A DNA stretch of 64,000 bases, taken from NCBI RefSeq assembly GCF_030013205.1, contig NZ_CP122648.1; one strand, 5' to 3'. The notes under the pieces were generated by a model. The model ran no database searches. It was not told the DNA's origin and saw nothing but the letters and a program-made list of their open reading frames with translations. This document shows, piece after piece, positions 2,569 through 51,718 of this stretch. Source of the stretch: Escherichia coli. GTDB taxonomy: Bacteria; Pseudomonadota; Gammaproteobacteria; Enterobacterales; Enterobacteriaceae. A program made the position numbers and the translations under genes. The first letter of the stretch is position 1, and each line of letters starts with the position of its first letter.

Positions 2569-2579
2569 TGGATTTGCCC

Positions 2580-3808: not shown

Positions 3809-3899
3809 CTGTTCTCCAATGACTAGTCTAAAAACTAGTATTAAGACTATCACTTATTTAAGTGATACTGGTTGTCTGGAGATTCAGGGGGCCAGTCTA

Positions 3900-3904
3900 G
3901 CACC
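3900..3904. repeat. 5-bp target-site duplication GCACC, right copy, flanking IS2
   Basis: GCACC immediately after the IS2 end at 3899. Confidence 0.85.
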
Positions 3905-3927
3905 CCTATAGCATCAAGGAAAAGCAG

Positions 3928-5310: not shown

Positions 5311-5319
5311 GGAACGGCA

Positions 5320-9486: not shown

Positions 9487-9512
9487 TGTCAGAATTTTAT
9501 GAGGTATGACGA

Positions 9513-9983: not shown

Positions 9984-10000
9984 ATAACAGGGAGTATCTC

Positions 10001-10315: not shown

Positions 10316-10339
10316 TCCTTATACTGGAGGGATCTTAAT

Positions 10340-11431: not shown

Positions 11432-11442
11432 CCGGAGGCCCT

Positions 11443-12294
11443 ATGTTTGCCGATATGAAAAGTATGGTGATGAAAGCCTGGCATGAACATTACGCCTTGC
11501 TGGCGATCAACTGTATGAATCTGGAAAGTGCTCGCGCAGCTATCCGCGTGGCGGAGAAGAATCGCGCTCCGATCATTCTCAATCTCTATCAGGGGCATCT
11601 GGCGCATTTTCCTGCACCCGTCGCGGCGGCAGTGGTTAAAACGCTCGCGGAATCTGCCTCAGTACCGGTCACTCTGGCGCTTGATCATGGCAAAAATCCG
11701 GACTGTATTCGTCAGGCGTTTCGTGCTGGTTTCAGCGGATTAATGATTGATGCTTCTGCTTTTCCCCTGGAGGAAAACGTGCGCCAGACCAAGGCGGTGG
11801 TGGAACTCGCCGCCAGCGCGCAGCTCTGCGTTGAAGGCGAACTGGGCCATCTGGCAGATGCGCCGCGTTACGACCAGGCCGCCAATGCAGACATGATGAC
11901 GCAACCCACTGATGTGGAAGCGTTTATCGCGCAGACAGGCATTGATCTACTGGCCGTCTCGGTAGGCACGGCGCACGGCATGTACGCGCCTGGTGTTGTA
12001 CCTGCTATTGATTTTCAGCGTCTGGCGGAGATTTTCCACTGCTCGAGCGTGCCTCTGGCATTACATGGTGGTAGCGGTACGCCGTTCGATCAGCTCCAGC
12101 TCTGTACGACTCTGGGGGTAGCAAAAATCAACGTGGGGGCGGCCATTTTTGAACGGGGGAAATCCGCGCTCCTGCATACCCTCTGTCACGATATATCCAT
12201 TGAACTGGTGGACGCGCTGAAAGCTATGGAACTGGCCTTCGAAGAAGCGATTACACCGTATTTACAGGCGAGCGGCTCTATCGGCAAAGCCTGA
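11443..12294 (+). CDS. Class II ketose-bisphosphate aldolase (GatY/KbaY/FbaA family), 283 aa
   Basis: Contains LDHG, GTAHG and HGGSG motifs of class II zinc aldolases. Confidence 0.75.
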   Translation: MFADMKSMVMKAWHEHYALLAINCMNLESARAAIRVAEKNRAPIILNLYQGHLAHFPAPVAAAVVKTLAESASVPVTLALDHGKNPDCIRQAFRAGFSGLMIDASAFPLEENVRQTKAVVELAASAQLCVEGELGHLADAPRYDQAANADMMTQPTDVEAFIAQTGIDLLAVSVGTAHGMYAPGVVPAIDFQRLAEIFHCSSVPLALHGGSGTPFDQLQLCTTLGVAKINVGAAIFERGKSALLHTLCHDISIELVDALKAMELAFEEAITPYLQASGSIGKA

Positions 12295-12374
12295 TTCATT
12301 TTCTGTCATGGCCTTTATGCCAGTGCAATAACGCACCGGCAGGGCGGACTACACGCTGAAACTGGAGATTTAAC

Positions 12375-13235
12375 ATGTTAGTTTCGATGAAAGAATTACT
12401 GCAACCTACCCGCCAGCACGGCTTTGCCATTGGCGCATTTAATGTGGCGGATAACTGTTTCCTTCGCGCAGTCGTGGATGAAGCAGAAGCGACAAATACT
12501 CCGGCGATTATTGCCATCCATCCCAGCGAACATGATTTTGTGGGCGATGCCTTTTTCGCTCACGTTCGCGAAATTACCCAGCGTAGTCCGGTCCCGTTTG
12601 TACTGCACCTCGATCATGGTGCCTCTGTAGAGCATGTTTTGCGTGCGATTCGCTGCGGATTTACCTCAGTAATGATCGACGGTTCGCTGCTGCCGTATGA
12701 AGAAAACGTGGCGCTGACCGCAGAAGTGGTTCGCCTCGCTCACGCGGTTGGAGTGTCGGTTGAGGGTGAACTGGGAACCATCGGACAAACAGGAACGTCG
12801 GTAGAAGGTGGTGTTTCACAAGTGACCTACACAGATCCGGCGCAGGCCGCCGATTTTATTGCTCGTACAGGTGCCGACACTCTGGCTGTGGCGATTGGTA
12901 CAGCGCATGGCATCTATCCAAAAGGGATGCAGCCGAAGCTGCAAATGGACATTTTGCGCGACATTGCCGGACGTATTGATATTCCGCTGGTGCTACACGG
13001 TGGTTCGGCAAACCCGGACGCGGAGATTGCTGAATCAGTTACGCTCGGCGTCGGCAAAATCAATATCTCCAGCGATATGAAATACGCCTATTTCCAGAAA
13101 GTGCGTGAAATTCTCGCTAAAGAGAGCTGGTGGGACCCGAACGTCATCTATCCGGATGCGATTAACGCGGCGCGGGAAGTCATTCGCCACAAAATGAAAC
13201 TGTTCGGTTCGCTCGGTAAAGCATCACTGTACTAA
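12375..13235 (+). CDS. Class II ketose-bisphosphate aldolase paralogue (GatY/KbaY family), 286 aa
   Basis: LHLDHG, GELG, GTAHG, LHGGS motifs; second tandem paralogue. Confidence 0.75.
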   Translation: MLVSMKELLQPTRQHGFAIGAFNVADNCFLRAVVDEAEATNTPAIIAIHPSEHDFVGDAFFAHVREITQRSPVPFVLHLDHGASVEHVLRAIRCGFTSVMIDGSLLPYEENVALTAEVVRLAHAVGVSVEGELGTIGQTGTSVEGGVSQVTYTDPAQAADFIARTGADTLAVAIGTAHGIYPKGMQPKLQMDILRDIAGRIDIPLVLHGGSANPDAEIAESVTLGVGKINISSDMKYAYFQKVREILAKESWWDPNVIYPDAINAAREVIRHKMKLFGSLGKASLY

Positions 13236-13240
13236 GCCAG

Positions 13241-13264
13241 AAGGGCGGGGTGACCCGCCTTTTA
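13241..13264 (+). terminator. GC-rich hairpin plus T-run between aldolase 2 and the kinase (possible intra-operon attenuator or partial terminator)
   Basis: GGGCGGG-GTGA-CCCGCCT followed by TTTT, 6 bp after the aldolase stop. Confidence 0.4.
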
Positions 13265-13282
13265 CGCAACAAGGAACGAGAT

Positions 13283-14215
13283 ATGCACTATCTGGGGTTG
13301 GATATTGGTGGGACCAAAATCGCCGCCGTCGTCATGGATGCGCATGGCTGGGAGATTCGCCGTTACCGCTGCCCGACGCAAAAGTCGACATATCAACAAT
13401 TTGTCTCATGCGTTGTGGCGTTTATCGAGCAGATTAGGCGGGACGTTCAACGACCGATGCTGACAGGGATCGCCTTACCCGGCAGTATCTCGCCACTCAC
13501 TGGCCTGATTAAAAACGCGAATATTCAGGTGATTAACGGTCATGCGTTACAGGCTGATTTGCAGCAATTGCTTGGGCAACCGGTGGTGATAGCCAATGAT
13601 GGTAACTGTTTCGCGCTATCAGAAGCTTGCGACGGTGCCGGGCAAGATTATGACGTGGTATTTGGTATTACGCTTGGTACGGGCTGCGGCGGTGGCATTG
13701 CCATCAAGCAACGACCGTTTATAGGGGCCTGGGGAAATGCTGCCGAATGCGGTCATATCACGTTGCCAGGCTATACGGAGCAGGAAGATGGTCCATCAGT
13801 CAGTTGCTATTGCGGCAAACACAACTGCGTGGAGTCGTTTGTTTCCGGCAGCGGTTTTAGTGAACGCTATCAACAGATGACTGGTAACTTGCTCACTCCT
13901 GCGGCGATTGTCACCCTGGCACAACGTGGTGATGCTTGTGCCATGCAGCAGGTGGCACGTTTTCGCCAACAGCTTGCCCGCACGCTGGCAACCATCGTTA
14001 ACGTTGTTGACCCTGGCGTGATTGTGATCGGCGGCGGGCTTTCGAATGTGGAACTGCTTATCACCGCTCTGAACGCAGAAGTTGCTCCACTGGTTTTCAC
14101 CGATCAATTCACCACTCCCATTGTAAAAGCACAGCACGGCGACAGTAGCGGAATGCGTGGCGCTGCCTGGCTTGCTATGCGCAACGGAGAAGCCAATGAA
14201 ACGTTCACAAATTAA
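13283..14215 (+). CDS. ROK-family sugar kinase, ~310 aa
   Basis: MHYLGLDIGGTKIAAV... N-terminal ATP motif and CYCGKHNCVESF zinc-binding ROK signature; start moved to the ATG with AAGGAA Shine-Dalgarno rather than the upstream GTG of the track ORF. Confidence 0.75.
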   Translation: MHYLGLDIGGTKIAAVVMDAHGWEIRRYRCPTQKSTYQQFVSCVVAFIEQIRRDVQRPMLTGIALPGSISPLTGLIKNANIQVINGHALQADLQQLLGQPVVIANDGNCFALSEACDGAGQDYDVVFGITLGTGCGGGIAIKQRPFIGAWGNAAECGHITLPGYTEQEDGPSVSCYCGKHNCVESFVSGSGFSERYQQMTGNLLTPAAIVTLAQRGDACAMQQVARFRQQLARTLATIVNVVDPGVIVIGGGLSNVELLITALNAEVAPLVFTDQFTTPIVKAQHGDSSGMRGAAWLAMRNGEANETFTN

Positions 14216-14876
14216 TTATGTTATTGATAAAGCACATGCCATTGCGCAGACCTTCCGCGTTTGTTTGCCAGAGTTCGCCTATTTTACGGTGGATGACTGG
14301 CTGCAGCTGGAACGGGATAACTGGCAAGAAGTGGTCGACTTACAGCTCGGTTGGGATATCACCGATTTTGGTCGTGGTGATTTCAACCAAACGGGACTAA
14401 CACTGCTAACGATGCGCAACGGCGCGCTGGGGTCGGCGGCATATCCAAAACCGTATGCTGAGAAAATGTTGCAGATCCAACAAGATCAGCAGACTCCTTG
14501 GCATTTTCACACCCACAAAATGGAAGATATCCTCAATCGGGGCGGTGGAGACTTATGCATGCAGTTGGCCTGGGCCAACGAAGCCAATCTCTGTGATGAT
14601 CAACGAGTCATTACCGTGAGTGTTGATGGTCAGCGGCGTACCATGAAACCTGGTGAAACGCTGGTGCTAAAGCCGGGGCAGGGCATTTGCCTGCCGCCGC
14701 GTCTGTATCATCGCTTCTGGGCGGAAAAAGCGTTTGTTCTCGGCTGGGAAATTTCGATGGTAAATGATGACCAACATGATAACCATTTTCTTGAGCCGGG
14801 AGGACGTTTTCCGGCGATAGAAGAAGATGAACCGGTGAAATGGTTATTGTGTAGTGAGTATGCTGTTTTGCGGTAA
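14196..14876 (+). CDS. Cupin-fold sugar isomerase, D-lyxose/D-mannose isomerase-like, ~226 aa
   Basis: Size and His-rich segment (WHFHTHKMEDI) resemble cupin-type D-lyxose isomerases; start taken at the ATG preceded by GGAGA; overlaps the kinase stop. Family assignment is from memory. Confidence 0.5.
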   Translation: MKRSQINYVIDKAHAIAQTFRVCLPEFAYFTVDDWLQLERDNWQEVVDLQLGWDITDFGRGDFNQTGLTLLTMRNGALGSAAYPKPYAEKMLQIQQDQQTPWHFHTHKMEDILNRGGGDLCMQLAWANEANLCDDQRVITVSVDGQRRTMKPGETLVLKPGQGICLPPRLYHRFWAEKAFVLGWEISMVNDDQHDNHFLEPGGRFPAIEEDEPVKWLLCSEYAVLR

Positions 14877-14885
14877 TAGCGGGGA

Positions 14886-19626: not shown

Positions 19627-20493
19627 ATGAAAAAGCGTCGGAAGGAACCGGAAACGCTACGTGAACACTGTCGCCATATTTTTGGTGACGAGCCGCCAGT
19701 GCTCTGTGTATGGGAAACGGAATTTGATTACGCAGATGCCGAACTCAAGGCGCTGGCGGCTAAAGAGTGGCAACAGATAGGCGAATGGGATTTGAGTGCT
19801 TACTATGTACTCAATCTCGTTTATAACGAACCGATGCAAATAGAGCTGTTTCGCTATCTGTTTCCGCTATGCCTGGCGCAATGGCATGAAACCGTTTTAG
19901 CTGGCGGTTATGGTGATCACTTCGAAGAATCCTTAATGAAGGCATTGCGTCGGCCCTATCTCTGGCAGGAGATGATGAATGCTTCCCAACGCCAGCAGGT
20001 ACGGCAATTTTTACTGGAAACCGCGTTGCAGCGTATGGATAACGAGCGTGGTTTCAATAATGTTCTTTGCTGGCTGGCGGTGTTCAATACTCTGGGCGGG
20101 GCCGCGCCGTTAATTCATTCTCTCTGGTCAAGCTGGTGGGTGCTGGATACGCCGGGAAAAGCGGTGTGTGCTATTCAGTATGCCGCGCATCTAATTTATC
20201 CCATAGAAGCCAATCCGTTATGGTCGCAAGAATGGTTAGGCTGGGGGCATCCATTAGGTCATAAAGATGGCTGGTCCTCTGAGAATCGCGCTTTTCTTCG
20301 CCAAATGTTAACACCTGAAATGATTGTGGCTGGCGTACAGGCAGCGGCTGAAATTCTGCGTGGTGAACCGGAAGGCGCAATGGCGGCGCGAATTGCGCAG
20401 GATGCGTATGAGGCAGTGGATATCATCACTATCCAGATTGAAGATTTACTGCGTGACTTGTCTTGTGATGAGTCTGGTCATGCGTTGGAGTAG
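19627..20493 (+). CDS. Hypothetical protein, 288 aa, no recognisable domain
   Basis: ATG 3 nt after the gltS stop; C-terminus overlaps the recG stop by 16 bp; E. coli-like codon usage; Trp-rich, no predicted TM segments. Confidence 0.6.
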   Translation: MKKRRKEPETLREHCRHIFGDEPPVLCVWETEFDYADAELKALAAKEWQQIGEWDLSAYYVLNLVYNEPMQIELFRYLFPLCLAQWHETVLAGGYGDHFEESLMKALRRPYLWQEMMNASQRQQVRQFLLETALQRMDNERGFNNVLCWLAVFNTLGGAAPLIHSLWSSWWVLDTPGKAVCAIQYAAHLIYPIEANPLWSQEWLGWGHPLGHKDGWSSENRAFLRQMLTPEMIVAGVQAAAEILRGEPEGAMAARIAQDAYEAVDIITIQIEDLLRDLSCDESGHALE

Positions 20494-22559
20494 CGTTCTG
20501 TTTCTGGCATCCAGCGTTCTATCAGGGCTTTTGCCTGTTGTGGGTAACGTTCGTGAATATGTCGCGCCAGGCGCTGAACTTCCGGGATCATCGCCTGGTC
20601 GCGCAGTAAATCCGCCACTTTAAACTCAGCATTACCCGTCTGACGCGTACCTAACAGTTCACCCGGTCCGCGAATCTCTAAGTCTTTCTGTGCAATCACA
20701 AAACCGTCGTTGCTGTCGCGCAGCACTTGCAGCCGAATTTGCGCGGTTTTGGAGAGCGGCGTTTTGTAGAGCAGCACGCAGTGAGAAGCCACCGCACCAC
20801 GACCTACACGCCCGCGAAGCTGGTGTAACTGCGCCAGACCCAGACGCTCAGGGTTTTCGATAATCATCAGACTGGCGTTAGGCACATCAACACCGACTTC
20901 AATAACGGTAGTGGCAACCAGCAGGTGTAGTTCACCTTGTTTAAACGACGCCATCACCGCCTGTTTCTCGGCAGGTTTCATCCGCCCGTGTACCAGGCCG
21001 ACGTTCAGTTCCGGCAACGCCAGTTTCAACTCTTCCCAGGTAGCTTCCGCCGCCTGCGCTTCCAGTAACTCTGACTCTTCAATCAACGTACAAACCCAGT
21101 ACGCCTGACAACCTCCAGTCATGCAGGCGTGGCGCACGCGGTCAATGATGTCGGTACGGCGAGTATCAGGAATAGCGACCGTAGTCACTGGCGTGCGGCC
21201 TGGCGGCAGTTCATCAATGACCGAGGTGTCGAGATCAGCATACGCAGTCATCGCCAGCGTGCGGGGGATCGGCGTGGCGGTCATGATCAACTGATGCGGA
21301 TGGAAGCCTTGCTGCTGGCCTTTCTCCCACAATGCCAGACGCTGATGCACGCCAAAGCGATGCTGTTCGTCGATAATCACCAGCGCCAGGCCGTTAAACT
21401 GCACCTGTTCCTGGAAGATGGCGTGTGTTCCGACAATCATCTGCACCTGACCGCTGGCGATGGCTTCCTGCTGTGCCAGCCGCGCTTTACCTTTCTGCTT
21501 ACCGGCGAGCCAGCCCACTTCGATACCGAGCGGTGCAAACCAGTTACGGAAGTTATTGGCGTGCTGTTCGGCGAGTAATTCGGTTGGTGCCATCAATGCC
21601 ACCTGTTTGCCGTGGGCAATCGCACGCAGCGCGGCGAGGGCAGCGACCAGCGTTTTACCGGAACCTACATCGCCCTGTACCAGGCGCATCATCGGCGCAT
21701 CCAGCGCCATATCGCGCTCGATCTCCGCCACCACGCGTGCCTGTGCGCCCGTTGGCTTGAACGGTAAGGCTGCGAGGAGTTTATTTTTCAGCGCGTCATT
21801 GGCGCTAAGCGGCTGGGCATGGAAACGTTGTGCACCAGCGCGTAACGCCAACATGCTGAGGTTGTGCGCAAGCAGTTCTTCCAGAATCAGACGGCGTTGT
21901 GCTGGATGCTGCCCGGTTTCGAGATCGCTAAGCTGTAGCGTCGGCGGCGGGCGGTGCAAAGTGCGCAACGCTTCCGGTAGCGTCATCATTCCTTGTGACA
22001 GTTCCGGCGGCAGGAGTTCTTCAATGGCGCAGGTGTCGAGCAGATCCAGCGCCTGATCGGTTAATTTACGCAGCGTGGCCTGCTTTACGCCTTCCGTAGT
22101 TGGGTAAACCGGCGTGAGCGTTTCCTGTAATTCTGGCGTGCTGAGATCGCCCTGCACGCGGTATTCCGGGTGGATCATCTCCGCACCATATTTACCGCGC
22201 TTTGCTTCGCCATAAGCCAGTACACGGCGGCCCGTCGCCAGGCTATTTTTCATTGCCGCGCTGAAATTGAAAAAGCGCATGGTGAGAATGCCGGAACCGT
22301 CGCTGATCTGGCAGGTCATCATCCGCCGACCGCCGAAGGAGATATTGCAGTTCAGCACTTCGCCTTCCACCGTGGCATAAACACCCGGCAGTAGTTCTCC
22401 GATGGGGTAGAGATGGGTGCGATCTTCGTAGCGCAGGGGAAGGTGTAAGAGTAGATCCTGCACGGTATGCAGGTTGATTTTCGCCAGTTTGTTACTAAGT
22501 GCTGCGCCAACGCCCGTTAGGGAACTGAGTGGGACAGCATCTAACAGGCGACCTTTCAT
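20478..22559 (-). CDS. recG: ATP-dependent DNA helicase RecG, 693 aa
   Basis: MKGRLLDAVPLSSLTGVGAALSNKLAKINLHTVQDLL... with Walker A GDVGSGKT and DEQH box; start at the internal Met of the track ORF. Confidence 0.95.
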   Translation of the reverse strand: MKGRLLDAVPLSSLTGVGAALSNKLAKINLHTVQDLLLHLPLRYEDRTHLYPIGELLPGVYATVEGEVLNCNISFGGRRMMTCQISDGSGILTMRFFNFSAAMKNSLATGRRVLAYGEAKRGKYGAEMIHPEYRVQGDLSTPELQETLTPVYPTTEGVKQATLRKLTDQALDLLDTCAIEELLPPELSQGMMTLPEALRTLHRPPPTLQLSDLETGQHPAQRRLILEELLAHNLSMLALRAGAQRFHAQPLSANDALKNKLLAALPFKPTGAQARVVAEIERDMALDAPMMRLVQGDVGSGKTLVAALAALRAIAHGKQVALMAPTELLAEQHANNFRNWFAPLGIEVGWLAGKQKGKARLAQQEAIASGQVQMIVGTHAIFQEQVQFNGLALVIIDEQHRFGVHQRLALWEKGQQQGFHPHQLIMTATPIPRTLAMTAYADLDTSVIDELPPGRTPVTTVAIPDTRRTDIIDRVRHACMTGGCQAYWVCTLIEESELLEAQAAEATWEELKLALPELNVGLVHGRMKPAEKQAVMASFKQGELHLLVATTVIEVGVDVPNASLMIIENPERLGLAQLHQLRGRVGRGAVASHCVLLYKTPLSKTAQIRLQVLRDSNDGFVIAQKDLEIRGPGELLGTRQTGNAEFKVADLLRDQAMIPEVQRLARHIHERYPQQAKALIERWMPETERYSNA

Positions 22560-39232: not shown

Positions 39233-39583
39233 AGTAAATAGCTGACTTATGGATGTGCTGGGGATTCTATGTATTTAGCTGTGGCTTTACCATTACTTTT
39301 CCCGTTTTTGACTTAAATAGCAATTTACCCGCCAATTCTTGCTGAACATCTATACTTTTTTTGTATTTTTATGCGATTCATTGATTTCTGCAGTACGTGC
39401 AGGAAGGAATCGCAGAGCAACAGTGAAAGAATATGGTTGCTAATGATTTTATTTGATTGATTTCTTTATTGAAAATCAACAATGTGCTTAAAAATCATTC
39501 GGGTCGGATTGCCGCGAAAGAAGTGATACACTAGCGCGTCAATATCAGTGCGGTATCAGTATTCAGGTAGCTGTTGAGCCTGG

Positions 39584-39595
39584 GGCGGTAGCGTG
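39584..39595 (+). promoter_or_regulatory. ops element (GGCGGTAGCGTG) within the JUMPstart leader of the waaQ operon; RfaH recruitment site
   Basis: Exact GGCGGTAGCGTG ~50 bp upstream of the waaQ start in the waaA-waaQ divergent region. Confidence 0.85.
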
Positions 39596-39644: not shown

Positions 39645-40703
39645 GTGGATAAGCCATTTCGAAGAATTTTGCTCATTAAGATGCGTTTTCATGGGGATAT
39701 GTTATTAACTACTCCCGTCATTAGTTCGCTGAAAAAAAATTACCCTGACGCAAAAATCGATGTGCTGCTTTATCAGGACACCATCCCGATCCTGTCTGAA
39801 AATCCAGAGATTAACGCGCTCTACGGCATAAAAAATAAAAAAGCAAAAGCCTCAGAAAAAATTGCCAACTTTTTTCATCTCATCAAGGTATTACGTGCCA
39901 ATAAGTATGACCTTATCGTCAATCTTACCGATCAATGGATGGTTGCTATACTGGTTCGCTTATTAAATGCCCGTGTGAAAATTTCCCAGGATTATCATCA
40001 TCGGCAGTCTGCTTTTTGGCGTAATAGTTTCACTCATTTGGTGCCGTTGCAGGGTGGAAATGTGGTGGAAAGTAACTTATCCGTGCTGACGCCATTGGGA
40101 GTTGATTCGTTGGTGAAGCAGACAACCATGAGTTACCCGCCTGCAAGCTGGAAACGTATGCGTTGCGAACTTGATCACGCTGGTGTTGGACAAAATTATG
40201 TGGTTATCCAACCTACGGCGCGGCAAATCTTCAAATGCTGGGACAACGCCAAGTTTTCCGCTGTGATTGATGCCTTACATGCTCGTGGTTATGAAGTCGT
40301 TCTGACGTCCGGCCCAGATAAAGACGATCTGGTCTGCGTCAATAAAATTGCGCAGGGATGCCAGACGCCACCAGTAACGGCGCTGGCCGGAAAGGTGACC
40401 TTCCCGGAACTTGGTGCGTTAATCGATCATGCGCAGCTGTTTATTGGCGTTGATTCCGCACCGGCGCATATTGCCGCAGCAGTTAATACGCCGCTGATAT
40501 CGCTGTTTGGTGCGACAGACCATATTTTCTGGCGTCCCTGGTCAAATAACATGATTCAATTCTGGGCGGGAGATTACCGGGAAATGCCAACGCGCGATCA
40601 GCGTGACCGAAATGAGATGTATCTTTCGGTTATTCCGGCGGCAGATGTCATTGCTGCTGTCGATAAATTACTGCCCTCCTCCACGACAGGTACGTCGTTA
40701 TGA
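39645..40703 (+). CDS. waaQ: LPS heptosyltransferase III WaaQ (GT9), ~340-352 aa
   Basis: ...RILLIKMRFHGDMLLTTPVISSLKKNYPDAKIDVLLYQDT...; track ORF begins at a GTG; true start not resolved. Confidence 0.88.
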   Translation: MDKPFRRILLIKMRFHGDMLLTTPVISSLKKNYPDAKIDVLLYQDTIPILSENPEINALYGIKNKKAKASEKIANFFHLIKVLRANKYDLIVNLTDQWMVAILVRLLNARVKISQDYHHRQSAFWRNSFTHLVPLQGGNVVESNLSVLTPLGVDSLVKQTTMSYPPASWKRMRCELDHAGVGQNYVVIQPTARQIFKCWDNAKFSAVIDALHARGYEVVLTSGPDKDDLVCVNKIAQGCQTPPVTALAGKVTFPELGALIDHAQLFIGVDSAPAHIAAAVNTPLISLFGATDHIFWRPWSNNMIQFWAGDYREMPTRDQRDRNEMYLSVIPAADVIAAVDKLLPSSTTGTSL

Positions 40704-41824
40704 TCGTTGCTTTTTGTTTATATAAATATTTTCCCTTTGGCGGTTTGCAGCGCGATTTTATGCGTATTGCTCAGACAGTCGCCGCCCGAGGTCATCATGT
40801 TCGGGTTTATACCCAGTCGTGGGAAGGCGAATGTCCTGATGTATTTGAACTGATCAAAGTGCCGGTTAAATCGCATACCAATCACGGGCGCAATGCGGAG
40901 TATTTTGCCTGGGTGCAAAAACATTTACGCGAACATCCCGTCGATAAAGTCGTTGGATTCAACAAAATGCCGGGGCTGGACGTTTATTATGCCGCTGATG
41001 TTTGTTATGCCGAGAAAGTAGCGCAGGAAAAAGGCTTTTTCTATCGCCTGACGTCACGTTATCGCCATTATGCCGCCTTTGAGCGGGCAACCTTCGAACA
41101 GGGCAAGCCGACACAGCTGCTGATGCTGACAGATAAGCAAATCGCCGATTTCCAGAAACATTATCAGACTGAAGCGGAGCGTTTTCATATTCTGCCACCG
41201 GGGATTTATCCTGATCGTAAATATAGCCAGCAGCCAGCTAATAGCCGTGAAATCTTCCGTAAGAAGAATGGAATAACCGAACAACAATATTTATTGTTGC
41301 AGGTCGGTTCAGACTTCACGCGTAAAGGTGTCGATCGTTCCATTGAAGCACTTGCTTCGTTACCGGATTCGCTGCGCCACAACACATTGCTATATGTTGT
41401 TGGGCAGGATAAACCGCGAAAATTTGAGGCGCTGGCAGAAAAACGCGGCGTGCGCAGTAATGTTCACTTCTTCTCGGGGCGCAACGATGTCTCGGAATTA
41501 ATGGCGGCGGCGGATTTATTACTGCATCCTGCCTACCAGGAAGCGGCGGGAATTGTGCTGCTGGAAGCGATTACTGCAGGATTACCGGTACTAACAACAG
41601 CCGTTTGTGGCTATGCGCCTTATATTGTCGAGGCCAATTGCGGCGAGGCTATTGCTGAGCCATTCCGCCAGGAAACATTGAATGAGATTTTACGCAAAGC
41701 GTTAACGCAATTTTCATTGCGCCAGGCCTGGGCGGAAAATGCGCGACATTATGCTGATACACAAGATTTATACAGTCTGCCAGAGAAAGCGGCGGATATC
41801 ATAACGGGTGGTCTGGATGGTTGA
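40700..41824 (+). CDS. waaG: LPS glucosyltransferase I WaaG (GT4), 374 aa
   Basis: [43 protein letters not shown]... Confidence 0.93.
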
Positions 41825-42614
41825 ACTTAAAGAGCCGTTTGCCACGTTATGGCGCGGAAAAGATCCTTTTGAGGAAGTTAAAACTTTGCAGGGTGAGGTA
41901 TTTCGTGAACTGGAAACTCGCCGTACTCTGCGCTTTGAAATGGCGGGCAAAAGCTATTTTCTCAAATGGCATCGCGGCACGACCCTGAAAGAGATAATCA
42001 AAAATTTACTCTCATTGCGGATGCCAGTATTAGGCGCAGACCGCGAATGGAATGCGATTCATCGACTGCGGGATGTCGGCGTTGATACTATGTATGGGGT
42101 GGCATTTGGCGAAAAAGGCATGAATCCGCTTACCAGAACTTCATTTATTATTACCGAAGATCTGACACCAACCATAAGTCTGGAAGATTACTGTGCTGAC
42201 TGGGCGACTAACCCTCCAGATGTTCGCGTAAAGCGTATGCTTATTAAGCGTGTCGCGACGATGGTGCGCGATATGCATGCTGCGGGCATTAACCACCGTG
42301 ACTGTTATATCTGTCATTTCCTGCTGCACTTGCCTTTTTCCGGTAAGGAAGAGGAGTTAAAAATTTCGGTAATTGACCTGCACCGGGCGCAGCTTCGCAC
42401 GCGCGTTCCACGTCGTTGGCGCGATAAAGATCTTATAGGGCTTTATTTTTCTTCGATGAATATTGGCCTGACTCAGCGGGATATCTGGCGGTTTATGAAA
42501 GTGTATTTTGTCGCCCCGCTTAAAGACATTCTCAAGCAGGAACAAGGGCTGCTGTCGCAAGCAGAAGCAAAAGCCACAAAAATCAGGGAAAGAACGATTC
42601 GAAAATCGTTGTAA
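41817..42614 (+). CDS. waaP: LPS core heptose(I) kinase WaaP, 265 aa
   Basis: [54 protein letters not shown]... Confidence 0.93.
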
Positions 42615-42629: not shown

Positions 42630-43646
42630 ATGAGTGCCCACTATTTTAATCCACAAGAGATGATCAATAAGACAATCATCTTCGATGAAAGGCCAGCGGC
42701 GTCAGTGGCATCATCATTCCATGTTGCTTATGGCATTGATAAAAACTTTCTTTTTGGTTGTGGTGTTTCAATCACGTCAGTTTTGTTACATAACAACGAC
42801 GTGAGTTTTGTTTTCCACGTTTTTATTGATGATATCCCTGAAGCCGATATCCAGCGTTTAGCCCAATTGGCGAAAAGCTATCGTACCTGTATCCAGATCC
42901 ATCTAGTAAATTGTGAACGGCTTAAGGCATTACCGACGACCAAAAATTGGTCTATTGCCATGTATTTCCGTTTTGTAATTGCAGATTACTTTATTGATCA
43001 ACAAGATAAGATCCTTTACCTGGATGCTGATATCGCCTGTCAGGGAAACTTAAAGCCGCTGATAACAATGGATCTTGCCAATAACGTTGCTGCTGTTGTT
43101 ACTGAACGCGATGCTAACTGGTGGTCGTTACGGGGTCAAAGTCTGCAGTGTAATGAACTTGAAAAGGGTTACTTTAATTCAGGTGTCCTGTTAATTAATA
43201 CACTAGCGTGGGCGCAGGAGTCCGTTTCTGCTAAAGCGATGTCGATGCTTGCTGATAAAGCCATCGTTTCCCGTTTAACCTATATGGATCAAGATATCCT
43301 TAATCTTATCCTGTTAGGGAAAATTAAATTCATTGATGCTAAATACAATACGCAATTTAGTTTAAATTATGAATTAAAAAAATCATTTGTTTGTCCAATT
43401 AATGATGAAACCGTATTAATTCATTATGTCGGCCCGACAAAACCCTGGCATTACTGGGCCGGTTATCCAAGTGCGCAACCTTTTATCAAAGCCAAAGAAG
43501 CATCGCCCTGGAAAAATGAACCGTTAATGCGGCCAGTTAACTCAAACTATGCTCGTTATTGCGCCAAGCATAATTTTAAACAAAATAAACCAATTAACGG
43601 GATAATGAATTATATTTATTATTTTTATTTAAAGATAATAAAATGA
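42630..43646 (+). CDS. waaO: GT8 outer-core alpha-glycosyltransferase, first after waaP (WaaO-like, Glc II transferase), 338 aa
   Basis: GT8 hallmarks YGIDKNFLFG, DxD region (LYLDADI) and TKPWHYWAGYPSA; positional equivalent of waaO. Confidence 0.6.
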   Translation: MSAHYFNPQEMINKTIIFDERPAASVASSFHVAYGIDKNFLFGCGVSITSVLLHNNDVSFVFHVFIDDIPEADIQRLAQLAKSYRTCIQIHLVNCERLKALPTTKNWSIAMYFRFVIADYFIDQQDKILYLDADIACQGNLKPLITMDLANNVAAVVTERDANWWSLRGQSLQCNELEKGYFNSGVLLINTLAWAQESVSAKAMSMLADKAIVSRLTYMDQDILNLILLGKIKFIDAKYNTQFSLNYELKKSFVCPINDETVLIHYVGPTKPWHYWAGYPSAQPFIKAKEASPWKNEPLMRPVNSNYARYCAKHNFKQNKPINGIMNYIYYFYLKIIK

Positions 43647-43662
43647 AATTGAGAAAAGTTAA

Positions 43663-44658
43663 ATGAATGAATTTATAAAAGAACGGTTTTCGTATTTAGC
43701 AGATAATAAAAAAGAAAACGCCCCAGAGCTAAATGTTTCCTACGGTATCGATAAGAATTTTTTGTATGGTGCTGGCGTTTCAATTTCTTCCGTTTTGATT
43801 AATAATTCAGATATTAATTTTGTCTTTCATGTTTTCACTGATTATGTGGATGATGATTATTTAAAGTCATTTAATGAAACAGCAAAACAATTTAATACCT
43901 CAATTATTGTATATTTAATTGACCCCAAATACTTTGCTGATCTGCCGACGTCACAGTTTTGGTCGTACGCGACATACTTCAGGGTATTGTCTTTTGAATA
44001 TCTGAGTGAAAGTATTTCCACACTGCTGTATCTGGATGCCGATGTTGTTTGTAAAGGAAGCCTGAAACCTCTCACAGAAATTATATTTAAAGATGAGTTT
44101 GCTGCGGTCATTCCTGACAATGATAGTACTCAGGCGGCATGTGCAAAACGCCTCAACATTCCCGAAATGAATGGACGTTATTTCAATGCAGGCGTTATCT
44201 ATGTCAATCTTAAAAAATGGCATGAAGCAAATTTGACACCGTATTTACTCAAACTTTTACGAGGGGAAACTAAATATGGCTCTCTTAAATATTTAGATCA
44301 GGATGCGTTGAATATCGCATTTAATATGAATAATATCTACCTTGCGAAGGATTTTGATACTATTTATACCCTGAAAAACGAACTTTATGATCGTAGTCAT
44401 CGAAAGTATCAGCAAACCATTACCGATAAAACAGTGTTGATTCACTATACAGGGATAACTAAACCATGGCATAGCTGGGCTGGATATCCGTCTGCATCAT
44501 ACTTTAATATCGCGCGTGAACAATCTCCCTGGAAGAAATATCCTCTTAAAGAGGCGCGGACTGTTGCAGAAATGCAGAAACAATATAAGCATCTGTTTGC
44601 CCATGGTGAGTATATTAAAGGCATAACTTCATTAATTAAGTACAAGCTTAAGAAATAA
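43663..44658 (+). CDS. waaT: GT8 outer-core alpha-glycosyltransferase, second paralogue (WaaT-like in R1/R4 nomenclature), 331 aa
   Basis: YGIDKNFLYGAG, LYLDADV, TKPWHSWAGYPSA; symbol assigned by gene order only. Confidence 0.5.
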   Translation: MNEFIKERFSYLADNKKENAPELNVSYGIDKNFLYGAGVSISSVLINNSDINFVFHVFTDYVDDDYLKSFNETAKQFNTSIIVYLIDPKYFADLPTSQFWSYATYFRVLSFEYLSESISTLLYLDADVVCKGSLKPLTEIIFKDEFAAVIPDNDSTQAACAKRLNIPEMNGRYFNAGVIYVNLKKWHEANLTPYLLKLLRGETKYGSLKYLDQDALNIAFNMNNIYLAKDFDTIYTLKNELYDRSHRKYQQTITDKTVLIHYTGITKPWHSWAGYPSASYFNIAREQSPWKKYPLKEARTVAEMQKQYKHLFAHGEYIKGITSLIKYKLKK

Positions 44659-44667
44659 ATTACTATT

Positions 44668-45360
44668 ATGATTACAAGTATACGCTATCGCGGCTTCTCA
44701 TTTTATTACAAAGATAATGATAATAAATATAAAGAAATCTTTGATGAAATACTGGCCTATAATTTTAAAACAGTAAAAGTATTACGTAATATTGATGATA
44801 CCAAAGTATCGTTGATTGATACGAAATATGGTCGCTATGTTTTTAAAGTCTTTGCCCCGAAAACGAAAAGGAATGAACGTTTTTTAAAATCTTTTGTAAA
44901 AGGTGACTACTATCAGAATTTGATCGTTGAAACCGATCGTGTCAGAAGTGCAGGTCTTACTTTTCCTAATGATTTTTATTTTCTGGCTGAGCGTAAAATT
45001 TTCAACTATGCCAGTGTTTTTATCATGCTTATCGAGTATGTCGAGGGCGTAGAGCTCAATGATATGCCGATTATTCCAGAAAATGTTAAAGCAGAAATTA
45101 AGGCTTCAATGGAAAAATTGCATGCCTTAAATATGCTATCGGGCGACCCACACCGGGGTAACTTTATCGTTAGTAAAGATGGTGTCAGGATAATTGACCT
45201 ATCCGGTAAAAGCTGTACGGCAGAGCGGAAAGCTCGTGATCGTCTGGCCATGGAACGTCACCTGGGTATTGCCAACGAAATAAAAGATTATGGCTACTAT
45301 TCAGTAATCTACAGAACCAAACTACGCAAATTTATTAAAAAATTAAAAGGCAAAGCGTAA
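44668..45360 (+). CDS. waaY: LPS core heptose(II) kinase WaaY, 230 aa
   Basis: Small kinase-like protein (…SGDPHRGNFIV…IDLSGK…) between outer-core glycosyltransferases, as in known waa clusters. Confidence 0.8.
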   Translation: MITSIRYRGFSFYYKDNDNKYKEIFDEILAYNFKTVKVLRNIDDTKVSLIDTKYGRYVFKVFAPKTKRNERFLKSFVKGDYYQNLIVETDRVRSAGLTFPNDFYFLAERKIFNYASVFIMLIEYVEGVELNDMPIIPENVKAEIKASMEKLHALNMLSGDPHRGNFIVSKDGVRIIDLSGKSCTAERKARDRLAMERHLGIANEIKDYGYYSVIYRTKLRKFIKKLKGKA

Positions 45361-45385
45361 ACCACACAGTCAAAACGGAACCAAC

Positions 45386-46414
45386 ATGGATTTATTAGCT
45401 GAGAGTATTACTGAAGTCGCTGTCTCTGGGGAAATTGCTAACACCGATCGTGTGTTAAATATCGCTTACGGTATTGACCGTAATTTTTTATTTGGTGCGG
45501 CCGTATCTATGCAATCAGTTGTTATGCATAACCCGGACCTTGCGGTTAAGTTTCATCTCTTTACCGACTACATTGATGAAGATTATCTACAACGTGTTAA
45601 CGCTTTTACCAGCAAAAATGCTAACGTTGAAGTAAGAATTTATAAAGTCTCCAGTGCCTTTATTGATATTTTCCCCAGCCTGAAACAGTGGTCTTATGCA
45701 ACATTCTTCCGTTTGGTTGCGTTCCAGTATCTGAGTGAAACTATTGAAAATCTGTTATATATCGATGCTGATGTCATCTGTAAAGGCTCATTAGCTGGAT
45801 TGCTTGATATTAATTTTGATGGCGATAAGTTCGCAGCTGTTATTAAAGATGTGCCTTTTATGCAGGAAAAACCAGCGAAGCGTCTGGCTATAGAGGGACT
45901 TCCAGGTAATTATTTCAACGCCGGTGTAGTATATCTGCAGCTTGAAGCATGGGCGAAAAATGATTTTATGAATAAAGCCATTGCTATGCTGGCAAGTGAC
46001 CCGCAGCATACGAAGTATAAATGCCTTGATCAGGATATTTTAAATATTCTGTTCTTTGGTCATTGTATTTTTATTAGCGGCGATTATGATTGCTTTTATG
46101 GCATTGACTATGAGTTAAAAAATAAAAGCGATGAAGATTATAAAAAGACCATTACCGATGATACTAAGCTGATTCATTATGTTGGCGTAACGAAGCCCTG
46201 GAACGACTGGACGAATTATCCCTGCCAGAAGTATTTTAATGAGGCTTATCAGGCTTCTTGCTGGAATGATGTGGCGTTTATTCCAGCCACGAATGAAAAG
46301 CAGTATCAAGTGAAATCCAGACATTTGAAAAGAAATGGTAAAATTGCATCTTCATTTTACTATTTCATGCTCTATTATAGTAAGAAAATAGCGCGTAAGC
46401 ATTTTTCCAAATAA
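45386..46414 (+). CDS. waaW: GT8 outer-core alpha-glycosyltransferase, third paralogue (WaaW-like), 342 aa
   Basis: YGIDRNFLFGAA, LYIDADV, TKPWNDWTNYP; symbol assigned by gene order only. Confidence 0.5.
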   Translation: MDLLAESITEVAVSGEIANTDRVLNIAYGIDRNFLFGAAVSMQSVVMHNPDLAVKFHLFTDYIDEDYLQRVNAFTSKNANVEVRIYKVSSAFIDIFPSLKQWSYATFFRLVAFQYLSETIENLLYIDADVICKGSLAGLLDINFDGDKFAAVIKDVPFMQEKPAKRLAIEGLPGNYFNAGVVYLQLEAWAKNDFMNKAIAMLASDPQHTKYKCLDQDILNILFFGHCIFISGDYDCFYGIDYELKNKSDEDYKKTITDDTKLIHYVGVTKPWNDWTNYPCQKYFNEAYQASCWNDVAFIPATNEKQYQVKSRHLKRNGKIASSFYYFMLYYSKKIARKHFSK

Positions 46415-46445
46415 TTATTAAGATTAATCATCCAGAGATTTTTTA

Positions 46446-47213
46446 ATGAACTTGCCCATTTATATTGTCTCACTTAAAAGAGATATTGAGCGAAGAAATA
46501 AAATAAATGATGTTTTTCATCGATTAAATATTAATTTTGATTTTTTTGATGCCATAGATGCTAAAGACCCTCAAAATAAAGAAATTATTGATAAAATGAG
46601 ATTAAGTGGTGTCGGCGCAGAAATGACTGATGGAGAAATTGCTTGTACATTAAGTCATCAGCTTATATATCAGGATATGATAGATAAAAATATAGAATGG
46701 GCAGTCATTCTCGAGGATGATGTTATCGTCAATGAGAAATTTAAAAAATTTCTGCAATATTTTAATCTTTCTGAAAAAGACAAGTTAAAACATAATAATT
46801 TGTATTTGCTTGGAGGACAGAAAGGATTACATGATTATCCGGTATTGGGGCAAAGCCTTTTTAGTAAAGTTAAGGTAAGTACTTGTACTTTTCGGCGTGT
46901 TAATTTCAATAAAAATAAAATTCGGCGTACATGTTCATATTTGATGAATAAAGATATGGCACAAAAGTTGCTCAAATTGACAAAGGATTATGGCACCTAT
47001 CGAGCTGATAGCTGGAAGTTAATGCATCAACATAATATTATAAAAGAGTTTTATTTAGACGAAATAATATTACATCCTATTTTAAATGAGTTTAATAGTC
47101 ATCTTGAAAGTGAAAGGCTATTAACATCGGAAAAAAAACAACCTAGAACAAGGCTTCAGAAAAGAATGAAGTTTATACGCTCCTGGATAAAGGTGGCTTT
47201 TTTTCTCTTTTGA
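46446..47213 (+). CDS. GT25-family LPS beta-glycosyltransferase (WaaV/WaaX-like; Lic2A/LgtB-like), 255 aa
   Basis: IYIVSLKRDIERR ... FFDAIDA ... TLSHQ ... ILEDDV motifs typical of GT25; cannot tell WaaV (R1) from WaaX (R4) by eye. Confidence 0.65.
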   Translation: MNLPIYIVSLKRDIERRNKINDVFHRLNINFDFFDAIDAKDPQNKEIIDKMRLSGVGAEMTDGEIACTLSHQLIYQDMIDKNIEWAVILEDDVIVNEKFKKFLQYFNLSEKDKLKHNNLYLLGGQKGLHDYPVLGQSLFSKVKVSTCTFRRVNFNKNKIRRTCSYLMNKDMAQKLLKLTKDYGTYRADSWKLMHQHNIIKEFYLDEIILHPILNEFNSHLESERLLTSEKKQPRTRLQKRMKFIRSWIKVAFFLF

Positions 47214-47252
47214 AATGAGATTGTTAATTTCAATTTGTTGTGAGATATTAAC

Positions 47253-48506
47253 GTGGAAGTAAAAATTGAGCAATTTCGAAATAATAGCTGTAATTTTATT
47301 TTTTTATTGTATTTAATCGGTTTGTTGTTTGTGCCAATTGATCTTAATATCACCACTAAAATAATTAATGCGACAGGTGCATTTTCTCTTTTCTTATTAA
47401 TTGTAAATAAAAAGCATAATTATAATAAAAATGTCATTATATTAATTCTTGGTTTACTTCTTTTGGGTGCAATGAACCTTATATGGTATGAATTTTATAA
47501 AACAGAAGATGTAGTATATAGAAATGCTTATCGAGGCTACCTTGAGTCTGGAAAACTATTAGTATTTAGCTCGTTGACATTTTTATTACTAAGTAAAAAT
47601 AAATTCAGGCAAAATGAAAAACTACATTTTATTTCAGCTATCTTAGTTCAAATAATCATGCTATGTAGAGCATATTATCAAGGGATATATTTGCATGCAG
47701 ACCGCATTCCCCTCTCCGCCATGAATGGGAATATTGGTCAGATGGGGGCAGCGACTATTGCGGCTTATGTGATTACATTTACAACTTTATATTCTTCAAT
47801 TGTATTCATAAAAATGCAATCGAAATATAAATGCTTTCTATTTTATGCTAACTTTGCTTTAAGCTTTGCAGCAGTAATGATGACAGGAACGCGTGCGGCA
47901 ATTTTCACATTCCCACTTATGATTATGGTCATATTATTTCTTCAGCATCGTGATCAAAAAGTGTTTTTATTTAAAGGATTGAGTGGTGTTTTTATATTGC
48001 TACTTGCTTGTGGTTTGATATTTAATAAGGAAATTGATAGGCGAATTAATTCATTAAAAGCTGATGTTATTTCATATGCTACAAAAAATAACAGTCAATC
48101 CTCGGTCGGAGCACGTTTTGCAATGGTTAATGCAGGAATTAAAGGAAGTCCTGATGGTTTTAATTGGCAATCTCTTGAGCAGCGTGCTGAAAAGATAAAA
48201 GCATTAAGTGCAGAAAATAATATTTATAGTGGAGCTTTATTATTCCTTGATGTACATATGCATAACGAAATTGTGGAATCTCTTTCCACGAAAGGAAAAA
48301 TTGGTCTTCTTGTTCTTATTATGTTCTATGTTGCAATGATCTATTACTGTATACGAGAGAAAAAATATATACTCTTGGTTTTCCCTGCTTCTATTATGTT
48401 ATTTGGCATTAGTGATGTCATTACACATGCTAAACCAATACCGGCATCGTGGATTGTGTGCCTCTTCCTGTCTATATCGTTTTTGAGTAAAAATGAACCA
48501 CAATAA
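47253..48506 (+). CDS. waaL: O-antigen ligase WaaL, ~417 aa, not the K-12 allele
   Basis: Polytopic membrane protein with a large periplasmic loop, last gene of the outer-core operon, convergent with waaC; track ORF starts at a GTG so the true start is uncertain. Confidence 0.8.
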   Translation: MEVKIEQFRNNSCNFIFLLYLIGLLFVPIDLNITTKIINATGAFSLFLLIVNKKHNYNKNVIILILGLLLLGAMNLIWYEFYKTEDVVYRNAYRGYLESGKLLVFSSLTFLLLSKNKFRQNEKLHFISAILVQIIMLCRAYYQGIYLHADRIPLSAMNGNIGQMGAATIAAYVITFTTLYSSIVFIKMQSKYKCFLFYANFALSFAAVMMTGTRAAIFTFPLMIMVILFLQHRDQKVFLFKGLSGVFILLLACGLIFNKEIDRRINSLKADVISYATKNNSQSSVGARFAMVNAGIKGSPDGFNWQSLEQRAEKIKALSAENNIYSGALLFLDVHMHNEIVESLSTKGKIGLLVLIMFYVAMIYYCIREKKYILLVFPASIMLFGISDVITHAKPIPASWIVCLFLSISFLSKNEPQ

Positions 48507-48553
48507 TAAAAGCGTTGACTAAGTAAGTGGGTATAATGCCCACTTACTATTTA

Positions 48554-49513
48554 TTAAATTAATGTGATTTTTTTATAAACAGCCGCTGCTTCTAAATTAT
48601 TTAAATTCATTAGCGGAGCCCTACAAACCACCTGATTCTTCCCATATCCGCCAATTAATCCCGGATCGGTTGGTCCATAAACCGTGATATTCGGTCTATC
48701 CAGTGCCGCCGTTAAATGGCTTAACCCCGTATCCACCGACACTACAAATTTAGCCCCGGCCAGTACGCGGGCAACGCCTTCCAGACTCATCTTCGGCAAT
48801 ACTTCAACATAAGCAAATCCTTCCGCCAGTCGTTTCGCCCGTTCTTCCTCATGCGGCGCGCCCCACGGAAGTTTAATCCGTATTCCTGAATCAGCCAGTA
48901 AACCAATCAATTCTCGCCAGTGTTCTTCCGGCCAGTGTTTATCATCACGGGTCGTCGCATGAAGAAATACGGCATATTCGCCAGCATCTGTAGGCAGGTT
49001 CGTCAGGAAATGTTGTGCGATAGCATAATCACCCTGGGTTTGCGGTTTGCTATAGCCCAAACTTTTGGCAAACAGTTCGCGGGTGCGTTCTACGGCGTGC
49101 TGCTGTTTTGCAATATGATGCTTACGATTGTAAAACAGGCTGGCTAACGGTTCTCGAACGGTTTGCCAGTCCATGCCATGCTTTACGCCATGCGCCAGAC
49201 GCGTCACCAGCGCCGCGCTTTTTACCAGCCCCTGAGCGTCGATAACTGCGTCATAGTTCTCTGCTTGTAGCGCTTCACGAAACGCTTTGCGTTCAGCTTT
49301 TATGGGGGCCGAGAACCAGGCTTTACGCCAGCGACGTATTGCCACAGGAATAACTCGCTCAACGGCGGCGTGCCAGGAAGGAATCTGTGCGAACCCTTCT
49401 TCCACCACCCAGTCAAACTTAATCCCTGGGATTGCCTGCTGGGCATCAGTGAGTGCGGGCAGCGTATGGAGAACATCGCCCATCGACGATGTTTTAACGA
49501 TCAAAACCCGCAT
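48554..49513 (-). CDS. waaC: LPS heptosyltransferase I WaaC, 319 aa
   Basis: MRVLIVKTSSMGDVLHTLPALTDAQQAIPGIKFDWVVEEGFAQIPSWH... Confidence 0.93.
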   Translation of the reverse strand: MRVLIVKTSSMGDVLHTLPALTDAQQAIPGIKFDWVVEEGFAQIPSWHAAVERVIPVAIRRWRKAWFSAPIKAERKAFREALQAENYDAVIDAQGLVKSAALVTRLAHGVKHGMDWQTVREPLASLFYNRKHHIAKQQHAVERTRELFAKSLGYSKPQTQGDYAIAQHFLTNLPTDAGEYAVFLHATTRDDKHWPEEHWRELIGLLADSGIRIKLPWGAPHEEERAKRLAEGFAYVEVLPKMSLEGVARVLAGAKFVVSVDTGLSHLTAALDRPNITVYGPTDPGLIGGYGKNQVVCRAPLMNLNNLEAAAVYKKITLI

Positions 49514-51505: not shown

Positions 51506-51718
51506 AACTGTAACCTTCGAATTATGGAGTCAGAGACAATCTCAGACACGAATGCTTCTATCATATCACTACACGGCGTTGGCTTCAGCCATTCGCCAAA
51601 AGTGAGATTGATGGACGTTATTTATCCTGAATTTTGCAGAAGTGTTAACGCGTCATCTCGTCGCGACCTATAAGTTTGGGTAATATGTGCTGGAATTTGC
51701 CCTGTCTGGAGAATCGCA

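Follow-up and report, generated by a model that had tools for sequence, protein, structure and literature searches.

The outer-core segment of the waa locus (positions 42630-48506 of the window, the 64,000-nt stretch of Escherichia coli DNA analysed here) carries six intact genes on the + strand: waaO, waaT, waaY, waaW, a gene for a glycosyltransferase of family GT25 and waaL. The segment runs from the start codon (ATG) of the first GT8 gene to the final base of the waaL stop codon, and none of the six ORFs contains an internal stop. Upstream lie waaQ (39645-40703), waaG (40700-41824) and waaP (41817-42614), which make up the conserved 5' portion of the waaQ operon (39645-42614, + strand) and are delimited by their ORFs and by the annotation of a genome 99.98% identical here; their products share 98-99% identity with those of R1, R3 and R4 genomes, and no more than 72-90% with those of K-12. 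Downstream, waaL converges with waaC (48554-49513, - strand), which encodes heptosyltransferase I and was assigned by its ORF, by annotation and by a C-terminal comparison that also revealed a core-type-specific tail. The ORF map and the Pfam and NCBIfam matches agree with the originally predicted content of three GT8 paralogues, waaY, one GT25 gene and waaL between waaQGP and waaC. According to the ORF map and the annotation of near-identical genomes, the genes stand in the order waaQ-G-P-O-T-Y-W-X-L on a single strand, with waaL convergent with waaC, as is characteristic of R4.

The leader of waaQ contains a JUMPstart (ops-containing) element (39557-39595, + strand; Rfam RF01707, 55.2 bits, gathering score 35, E = 6e-10), which makes the operon a candidate for RfaH-dependent antitermination. 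A scan for terminator-like structures found a hairpin with a 12-bp stem (48522-48548, no strand assigned) in the 47-bp gap between waaL and waaC; with its T-poor tail, it is a candidate terminator. The waa locus is complete and uninterrupted, with no transposase between waaQ and waaC. Positions 3895-64000 of the window are 99.98% identical to ETEC6333 and the outer-core block is 100% identical; the first 3.9 kb are unlike this genome, holding IS2 in the window and a P4-like island in ETEC6333.

The three GT8 proteins (338, 331 and 342 amino acids) all match PF01501 and PF08437 with E values of 1e-72 to 1e-80, and carry the DAD (DxD) motif of the retaining, LgtC-like GT8 family at residues 132, 125 and 127, respectively. 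WaaO (42630-43646) scores 611.7 bits against NCBIfam NF011718 (cut-off 461) and shares 99.1% identity with its counterpart in an R4 genome, 97.3% with that of R1 and 51% with K-12 WaaO. NCBIfam names this protein a galactosyltransferase, in conflict with the glucosyl transfer described in the R1/R4 core literature. WaaT (43663-44658) is 100% identical to the R4 protein, 98.5% to that of R1 and 43% to K-12 WaaJ. WaaW (45386-46414) is homologous to LgtC (PDB code: 1G9R; E = 2e-17), and its orthologue is named UDP-galactose--(galactosyl) LPS alpha1,2-galactosyltransferase by PGAP; it shares 98.2% identity with the R4 and 93.3% with the R1 protein, the differences being situated at the C-terminus. 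Between WaaT and WaaW, waaY (44668-45360) encodes a heptose(II) kinase of 230 amino acids (PF06176, E = 1e-129; NCBIfam NF007684, 401 bits, cut-off 248).

The GT25 gene, waaX (46446-47213, + strand), is the R4-defining gene and encodes a putative beta-galactosyltransferase of 255 amino acids. PF01755 (E = 1e-51) covers residues 4-186 of the protein, with an EDD acidic motif at residues 90-92, and the solved GT25 proteins 8XC8 and 8XLZ match it with E = 5e-13, only the N-terminal ~100 residues being aligned. WaaX is identical at 251 of 253 positions to a 257-amino-acid allele with the UniRef name beta-1,4-galactosyltransferase (Q9ZIS2), the two substitutions being K76Q and P109S, and shows 99.2% identity to the protein of a genome that also yields the R4 amplicon. 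The linkage formed by WaaX is disputed across sources, the typing source and the UniRef name giving beta-1,4 and a review beta-1,3. The last gene, waaL (47253-48506, + strand), has a GTG start and encodes a protein of 417 amino acids. PF04932 (Wzy_C) matches its residues 200-355 with 31.5 bits, marginally below the gathering cut-off of 31.7, while the solved WaaL structure 7TPG matches it with E = 6e-8. The periplasmic-loop motif H[NSQ]x9Gxx[GTY] of the O-antigen ligases is present at residue 337 (HNEIVESLSTKGKIG), and the sequence TGTRA at residue 211. This WaaL is of the R4 allele, with 99.8% identity to that of the genome typed as R4 by its amplicon, 35% to R1 and 31% to K-12 WaaL, and no match to that of R3. 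NCBIfam offers no model naming WaaX or this type of WaaL (0 hits), so Pfam, the names of sequence clusters and the comparison with typed genomes supply the basis for naming them.

A genome-based typing that covers the R4 operon was published by Trofimova et al. 2025 (PMC13293308), and its primers were used here for in-silico PCR. Primers R4-F (46616-46634) and R1R4-R (46255-46274) match the window exactly and give a 380-bp waaW-waaX product, as expected for R4, and this was the only product obtained. The controls behaved as published, with 842 bp for E. coli 536 (R1), 1442 bp for MG1655 (K-12) and 1021 bp for O157 (R3), whereas the primers specific for R1, R2, R3 and K-12 have no site in the window within 3 mismatches. 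Neither the waaS, waaB, waaZ and waaU genes of K-12 (1442-bp waaY-waaU product) nor an R3 waaL gave any tblastn match in the window; the R3 arrangement (waaI-waaY-waaJ-waaD, with waaL on the waaC strand) is likewise absent, and the R3 GlcNAc transferase finds only a 24% match, within waaG. The R2 type, marked by a waaZ-waaK region (610-bp product) and having waaS, waaB and waaZ in common with K-12, was rejected on the missing primer sites and the absence of WaaS, WaaB and WaaZ, with R1, K-12 and R3 genomes as the positive controls. The originally predicted R1/R4 rather than K-12 organisation is thus borne out, and the choice between R1 and R4, which that prediction had left undecided, falls on R4, to which the primers and the alleles of WaaX and WaaL all point. 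We consider the locus to be almost certainly the waaQ operon of E. coli in its R4 core-type version; the core structure would follow as predicted from this genotype.

WaaX departs from the common R4 allele at its extreme C-terminus. A homopolymer of seven T residues (47198-47204, + strand), aligned with NZ_CP085063, stands where most genomes have eight, and the protein ends in ...AFFLF (255 amino acids) instead of ...AFFSLLK (257 amino acids). The gene is nevertheless intact and the shift is confined to the last codons, which disposes of the possibility, raised at the outset, that the GT25 gene is a pseudogene. Few genomes carry T7 (9 of 670 complete ones, against 661 with T8), and GT25 genes of Haemophilus and Neisseria are classic examples of repeat-controlled, phase-variable genes. 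Both the rarity and the altered C-terminus would suit an R4 genotype with an impaired WaaX, in which the frameshift weakens membrane association or activity, the beta-galactose branch is missing or only partially added, and the tract may switch by slipped-strand mispairing. However, the change is limited to the final four residues, in whose place stand two, and the GT25 domain and 253 of the 257 residues are intact. Five of the nine T7 genomes come from a single swine ETEC collection, and all T7 alleles, both 255-amino-acid variants included, share the Q76/S109 background, which speaks for a variant of one lineage or for a homopolymer error tied to the sequencing platform, not for frequent switching, and leaves recurrent slippage at the tract unsupported. 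Apart from this tract and a short A8 tract, the waaX coding region has no phase-variation repeat. It is very improbable that the T7 allele, found mostly in swine ETEC, represents a functional variant, or a switch prone to slippage, that alters or abolishes the beta-galactose branch; if it did, T7 strains would have a modified R4 core and a different phage-receptor or antibody profile.

An R1 type, in which the side-branch enzyme would be a WaaV adding beta-glucose and WaaL the R1 ligase, shares much with the locus: WaaO, WaaT, WaaY and WaaW are 93-99.6% identical to the proteins of the R1 genome E. coli 536, and the R1R4-R primer site is common to both types. Against R1, there is no site for the R1-F (waaV) primer within 3 mismatches, hence no 842-bp waaW-waaV product, no WaaV orthologue stands between waaW and waaL, and WaaL is only 35% identical to its R1 counterpart. 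The original prediction held that the GT25 gene decides between WaaV and WaaX; this proved to be mistaken, as the protein encoded at this position in E. coli 536, which sources call WaaV, is a GT2 protein of 327 amino acids with no detectable similarity to the GT25 protein of the window, its sole tblastn match there being the paralogue waaH (34%). Since WaaV (GT2) and WaaX (GT25) are unrelated, membership in GT25 by itself identifies WaaX and R4, and the lasting correction is that the CAZy family alone separates R1 from R4. At the sequence level R1 is ruled out, and we give it next to no chance. Just as improbable is an R1/R4 hybrid whose genome holds another waaV-waaL(R1) set at a different place, for although such a hybrid has been described (ECOR46) and the window spans no more than 64 kb of the chromosome, the locus is complete, uninterrupted and transposase-free from waaQ to waaC, neither waaV nor an R1-type waaL occurs anywhere in the window, and the median number of places matched per genome by the block in megablast is one.

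The R4 locus differs from that of R1 by a 2.3-kb replacement cassette (46340-48613, + strand, GC 30.5%) in an otherwise 98% identical locus. In blastn against E. coli 536, identity is 98.3% through 46339, there is no match until 48614, and identity is 97.7% from there on; the cassette is the sole part of the locus without DNA homology to R1. It contains the 3' end of waaW (the final ~25 codons), waaX, waaL, the intergenic hairpin and the final ~20 codons of waaC. The original prediction described the whole block as AT-rich, which holds (34.6% GC against 51.3% for the remainder of the window), and the lowest-GC stretch of 5877 bp in the 64 kb begins at 42701. GC content ranges from 30.2% in waaX to 38.0% in waaO, compared with 47-54% for waaA, waaQGP, waaC, waaF and hldD. 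The further suggestion, that this composition is consistent with a horizontal exchange of the cassette, needs correction, as the corresponding blocks of R1 (35.3%), K-12 (33.3%) and R3 (33.1%) are just as rich in AT; all these core types, R4 included, have blocks of low GC (33-35%), which is no evidence of a recent transfer here. Low GC is in keeping with a foreign origin, long past, of the variable region as a whole, whereas the actual trace of the exchange is the sharp break in R1/R4 homology at 46339/46340, with homology returning at 48614.

Outer-core assembly can be proposed by placing the features observed here (gene content, order, intactness, families, allele identity to R4 genomes and the in-silico R4 PCR) on the scheme of the R1/R4 literature, from which the sugar and linkage of each step and the order of steps are taken. 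Transcription would start upstream of waaQ and proceed through the JUMPstart/ops leader, presumably with antitermination by RfaH, and the enzymes of the operon would complete the outer core on the cytoplasmic side of the inner membrane. WaaG would transfer GlcI to HepII, and WaaO would add to GlcI the second hexose of the outer core, which in R1/R4 is GlcII. WaaT, by the role given to it in the description of the R1 pathway, would act as an alpha-1,2-galactosyltransferase placing GalI on GlcII, and WaaW, probably also an alpha-1,2-galactosyltransferase, would place GalII on GalI. WaaX, presumed to be inverting, would attach to GlcII the beta-galactose side branch that distinguishes R4 from R1, and WaaY would phosphorylate HepII. 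After MsbA has flipped the lipid A-core, the R4-specific WaaL would ligate undecaprenyl-PP-linked O antigen to it in the periplasm.

The whole block is present with 97.9-100% identity in 690 of 5426 complete E. coli genomes searched by megablast (12.7%, about one in eight), in agreement with the 12.3% published for R4. Of the remaining ~1840 genomes with a match, most, among them E. coli 536 and Nissle 1917, are matched only from waaO to waaW (63% of the query). The genetic and chemical definition of the R4 core dates from the 1990s, and available tools suffice to type it. The locus is an ordinary and already known one and holds nothing new; its assignment to R4 is useful in the typing of a strain that resembles swine ETEC, and adds no new biology. 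The core type sets the attachment site of the O antigen, the binding of core-specific antibodies and the adsorption of LPS-targeting phages.

Among known systems, the GT25 LOS beta-galactosyltransferases (Lic2A, LgtB, LgtE; 8XC8, 8XLZ) are distant relatives that have PF01755 in common with WaaX. The K-12 locus (waaQGPSBOJYZU; its waaL belongs to the rfaD-waaFC operon) shares with the window waaQGP, waaY and GT8 paralogues at 38-90% amino acid identity, as well as the low GC of the block; unlike the window, it has waaS, waaB, waaZ and waaU, no GT25 gene, and a waaL which lies on the waaC strand instead of at the end of the waaQ operon. The R1 operon (waaQGPOTYWVL, E. coli 536) has the same layout as the window, with waaL last and convergent with waaC, and the 98.3% DNA identity extends from waaQ to all but the final 75 nt of waaW, homology being found again within waaC; it differs by the GT2 waaV and a different waaL following waaW, and by the tails of WaaW and WaaC. 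The prototype of R4 is reportedly strain F2513 of Heinrichs et al. 1998, to which the window is tied indirectly, by the UniRef name of Q9ZIS2, by the published typing primers and by the agreement in population frequency. With the R4 waaQ operon (waaQGPOTYWXL) the window shares gene order, orientation, the GT25 waaX, the waaL allele and the 380-bp product, and it differs only in the shorter T tract at the waaX 3' end (T7 for T8, 255 amino acids rather than 257) and in the K76Q and P109S substitutions.

The outer-core LPS block at 42630-48506 is an ordinary, already known waa locus, a textbook example of the R4 type. The original prediction placed its limits exactly, since the ORF listing has six consecutive plus-strand genes in this interval, waaO (42630-43646), waaT (43663-44658), waaY (44668-45360), waaW (45386-46414), waaX (46446-47213) and waaL (47253-48506), none of which has an internal stop. 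Directly 5' of them lie waaQ, waaG and waaP (39645-42614), while on the other side a convergent waaC (48554-49513) is followed by waaF and hldD. WaaO, WaaT and WaaW are GT8 proteins, each with a GT8 C-terminal domain in Pfam and NCBIfam; WaaY matches PF06176 (E 1e-129) and WaaX, of family GT25, matches PF01755 (E 1e-51). The Pfam score of WaaL, a Wzy_C-type ligase, is marginally below the gathering cut-off (31.5 against 31.7 bits), but two further results support the assignment: the protein matches the WaaL structure 7TPG (E 6e-8) and carries the ligase motif HNx9GxxG at residue 337.

The premise that WaaV and WaaX are alternative identities of the GT25 gene was mistaken. In E. coli 536 (R1), the gene after waaW encodes a 327-aa GT2 protein, for which the name WaaV (beta-1,3-glucosyltransferase) was taken from sources, and then comes a different waaL. 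WaaV (GT2) and WaaX (GT25) belong to separate families, so finding GT25 here is enough to identify WaaX and hence R4. No similarity was found between the GT25 protein and 536 WaaV, whose sole match in the window is a GT2 paralogue, waaH, at 54189 (34%). WaaX is identical at 251 of 253 residues to a 257-aa protein named beta-1,4-galactosyltransferase in UniRef (Q9ZIS2), which is present on at least 1000 contigs. That the GT25 gene is a pseudogene is ruled out by its untouched catalytic domain.

WaaO, WaaT, WaaY and WaaW share 98-100% identity with the R4 genome (NZ_CP085063) and 93-99.6% with R1, and only 38-54% with their K-12 and R3 paralogues. For WaaL the identities are 99.8% (R4), 35% (R1) and 31% (K-12); the R3 WaaL matches neither this protein nor anything else in the window, and the same is true of the K-12-specific WaaS, WaaB, WaaZ and WaaU. 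In silico typing used nine primers with the expected product sizes of Trofimova et al. 2025 (PMC13293308). Exact matches to R1R4-R (46255-46274) and R4-F (46616-46634) lie on opposite strands and predict a 380 bp amplicon, the size expected for R4, while the type-specific primers for R1, R2, R3 and K-12 have no site in the window, even with three mismatches. The same script returned the published sizes in all four control genomes: 380 bp for NZ_CP085063 (R4), 842 bp for E. coli 536 (R1), 1442 bp for MG1655 (K-12) and 1021 bp for O157:H7 TR01 (R3). The R1/R4 rather than K-12 organisation is thus borne out, and the side-branch question that had been left between R1 and R4 is answered as R4 by the intact GT25 ORF, the amplicon and WaaL. 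waaQ, waaG and waaP share 98-99% identity with R1 and R3 genomes, against only 72%, 90% and 84%, respectively, with K-12, so two deep allele classes exist even in the "conserved" 5' part of the operon.

The block was rightly described as AT-rich: its GC content is 34.6%, versus 51.3% elsewhere in the window, and the 5.9-kb stretch with the lowest GC in all 64 kb falls at the same place. The further reading of this as a sign of exchange needs correction, since outer-core blocks of all core types examined are similarly low in GC (R4 34.5%, R1 35.3%, K-12 33.3%, R3 33.1%) and low GC therefore tells nothing type-specific. Judged from sequence comparison, the real trace of the putative cassette exchange is a sharp mosaic boundary. 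In blastn against the 536 locus, identity is 98.3% up to 46339, nothing aligns until 48614, and identity is 97.7% beyond. The type-specific cassette (46340-48613, 2274 bp, 30.5% GC) takes in the final ~25 codons of waaW, the genes waaX and waaL, a 47-bp intergenic region with a hairpin of 12-bp stem (48522-48548), and the final ~20 codons of waaC.

By megablast against 5426 complete E. coli genomes, 690 (12.7%) match the full block at 97.9-100% identity, in agreement with the published R4 frequency of 12.3%. A further ~1840 genomes, E. coli 536 and Nissle 1917 among them, form a second class. In most of these the match is limited to query positions 1 to ~3700, which span waaO, waaT, waaY and the greater part of waaW, and in a few to a short stretch; the size of this class agrees roughly with the published R1 frequency of 35.4%. 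Partial matches to the block also occur at three plasmid places, and one record labelled plasmid has the R4 waaX-waaL junction; mis-assembly, mislabelling or mobilisation of a waa fragment could account for this.

At 47198-47204, near the 3' end of waaX, the window has T7 where the common allele has T8, so that the protein ends in AFFLF (255 aa) instead of AFFSLLK (257 aa). T7 occurs in 9 and T8 in 661 of the 670 complete genomes carrying the region. Five of the nine T7 genomes come from one swine ETEC collection, and a Q76/S109 background is common to both known 255-aa variants. The simplest readings are that the allele is specific to a lineage or that the homopolymer was missequenced; an effect on WaaX function is possible but unlikely. 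Other homopolymers in the block are A8 at 47131-47138 (inside waaX) and T7 at 46541-46547 and 47299-47305.

A JUMPstart element lies in the waaQ leader (39557-39595) and, in line with established knowledge of JUMPstart/ops, would allow this long, AT-rich operon to be read through in an RfaH-dependent manner. If the enzymes act as their orthologues in the characterised R1 and R4 systems do, WaaG would add GlcI, WaaO GlcII, WaaT GalI and WaaW GalII, with WaaX placing the beta-Gal branch on GlcII; WaaP and WaaY would phosphorylate HepI and HepII, and WaaL would ligate O antigen in the periplasm. A DAD motif is present in the GT8 enzymes, which share homology with the retaining enzyme LgtC, and WaaX has matches among solved GT25 chains. 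In NCBIfam (equivalog NF011718) and PGAP, waaO (42630-43646) is called a lipopolysaccharide 3-alpha-galactosyltransferase, contrary to the addition of glucose (GlcII) at the WaaO step in R1/R4 cores, and this is likely an over-propagated product name. Sources differ on the WaaX linkage, which is beta-1,3 in one review and beta-1,4 in Trofimova et al. 2025 (PMC13293308) and UniRef.

A pig ETEC isolate is the most likely source: window 3895-64000 is 99.98% identical to swine ETEC6333, and 1-6000 aligns with 100% identity to record positions 64001-70000 of several other swine ETEC chromosomes. In a published survey 18% of ETEC were R4. The full arrangement of 1-6000 recurs in just 8 complete E. 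coli genomes, each of pig origin. Between selC tRNA-Sec (2205-2299) and yicJ an IS2 element (IS3 family; 2205-3895 with selC) has minus-strand ORFs at 3443-3853 and 2580-3485, whereas ETEC6333 has there a P4-like satellite island (integrase, HEPN protein, Psu, Ogr/Delta). A ~7-kb accessory sugar-utilisation insert separates yicI and yicH (7934-14877); the ETEC6333 annotation gives it a BglG-type antiterminator, PTS IIA/IIB/IIC, two bisphosphate aldolases, a ROK protein and a lyxose/mannose isomerase. An extra 288-aa hypothetical ORF (19628-20494) lies 3' of gltS and overlaps the recG 3' end. The gene htrL/yibB, found between rfaD and kbl in K-12 and beside rfaD in O157, is absent, and only 213 bp (51506-51718) separate rfaD from kbl, a spacing also seen in E. 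coli 536.
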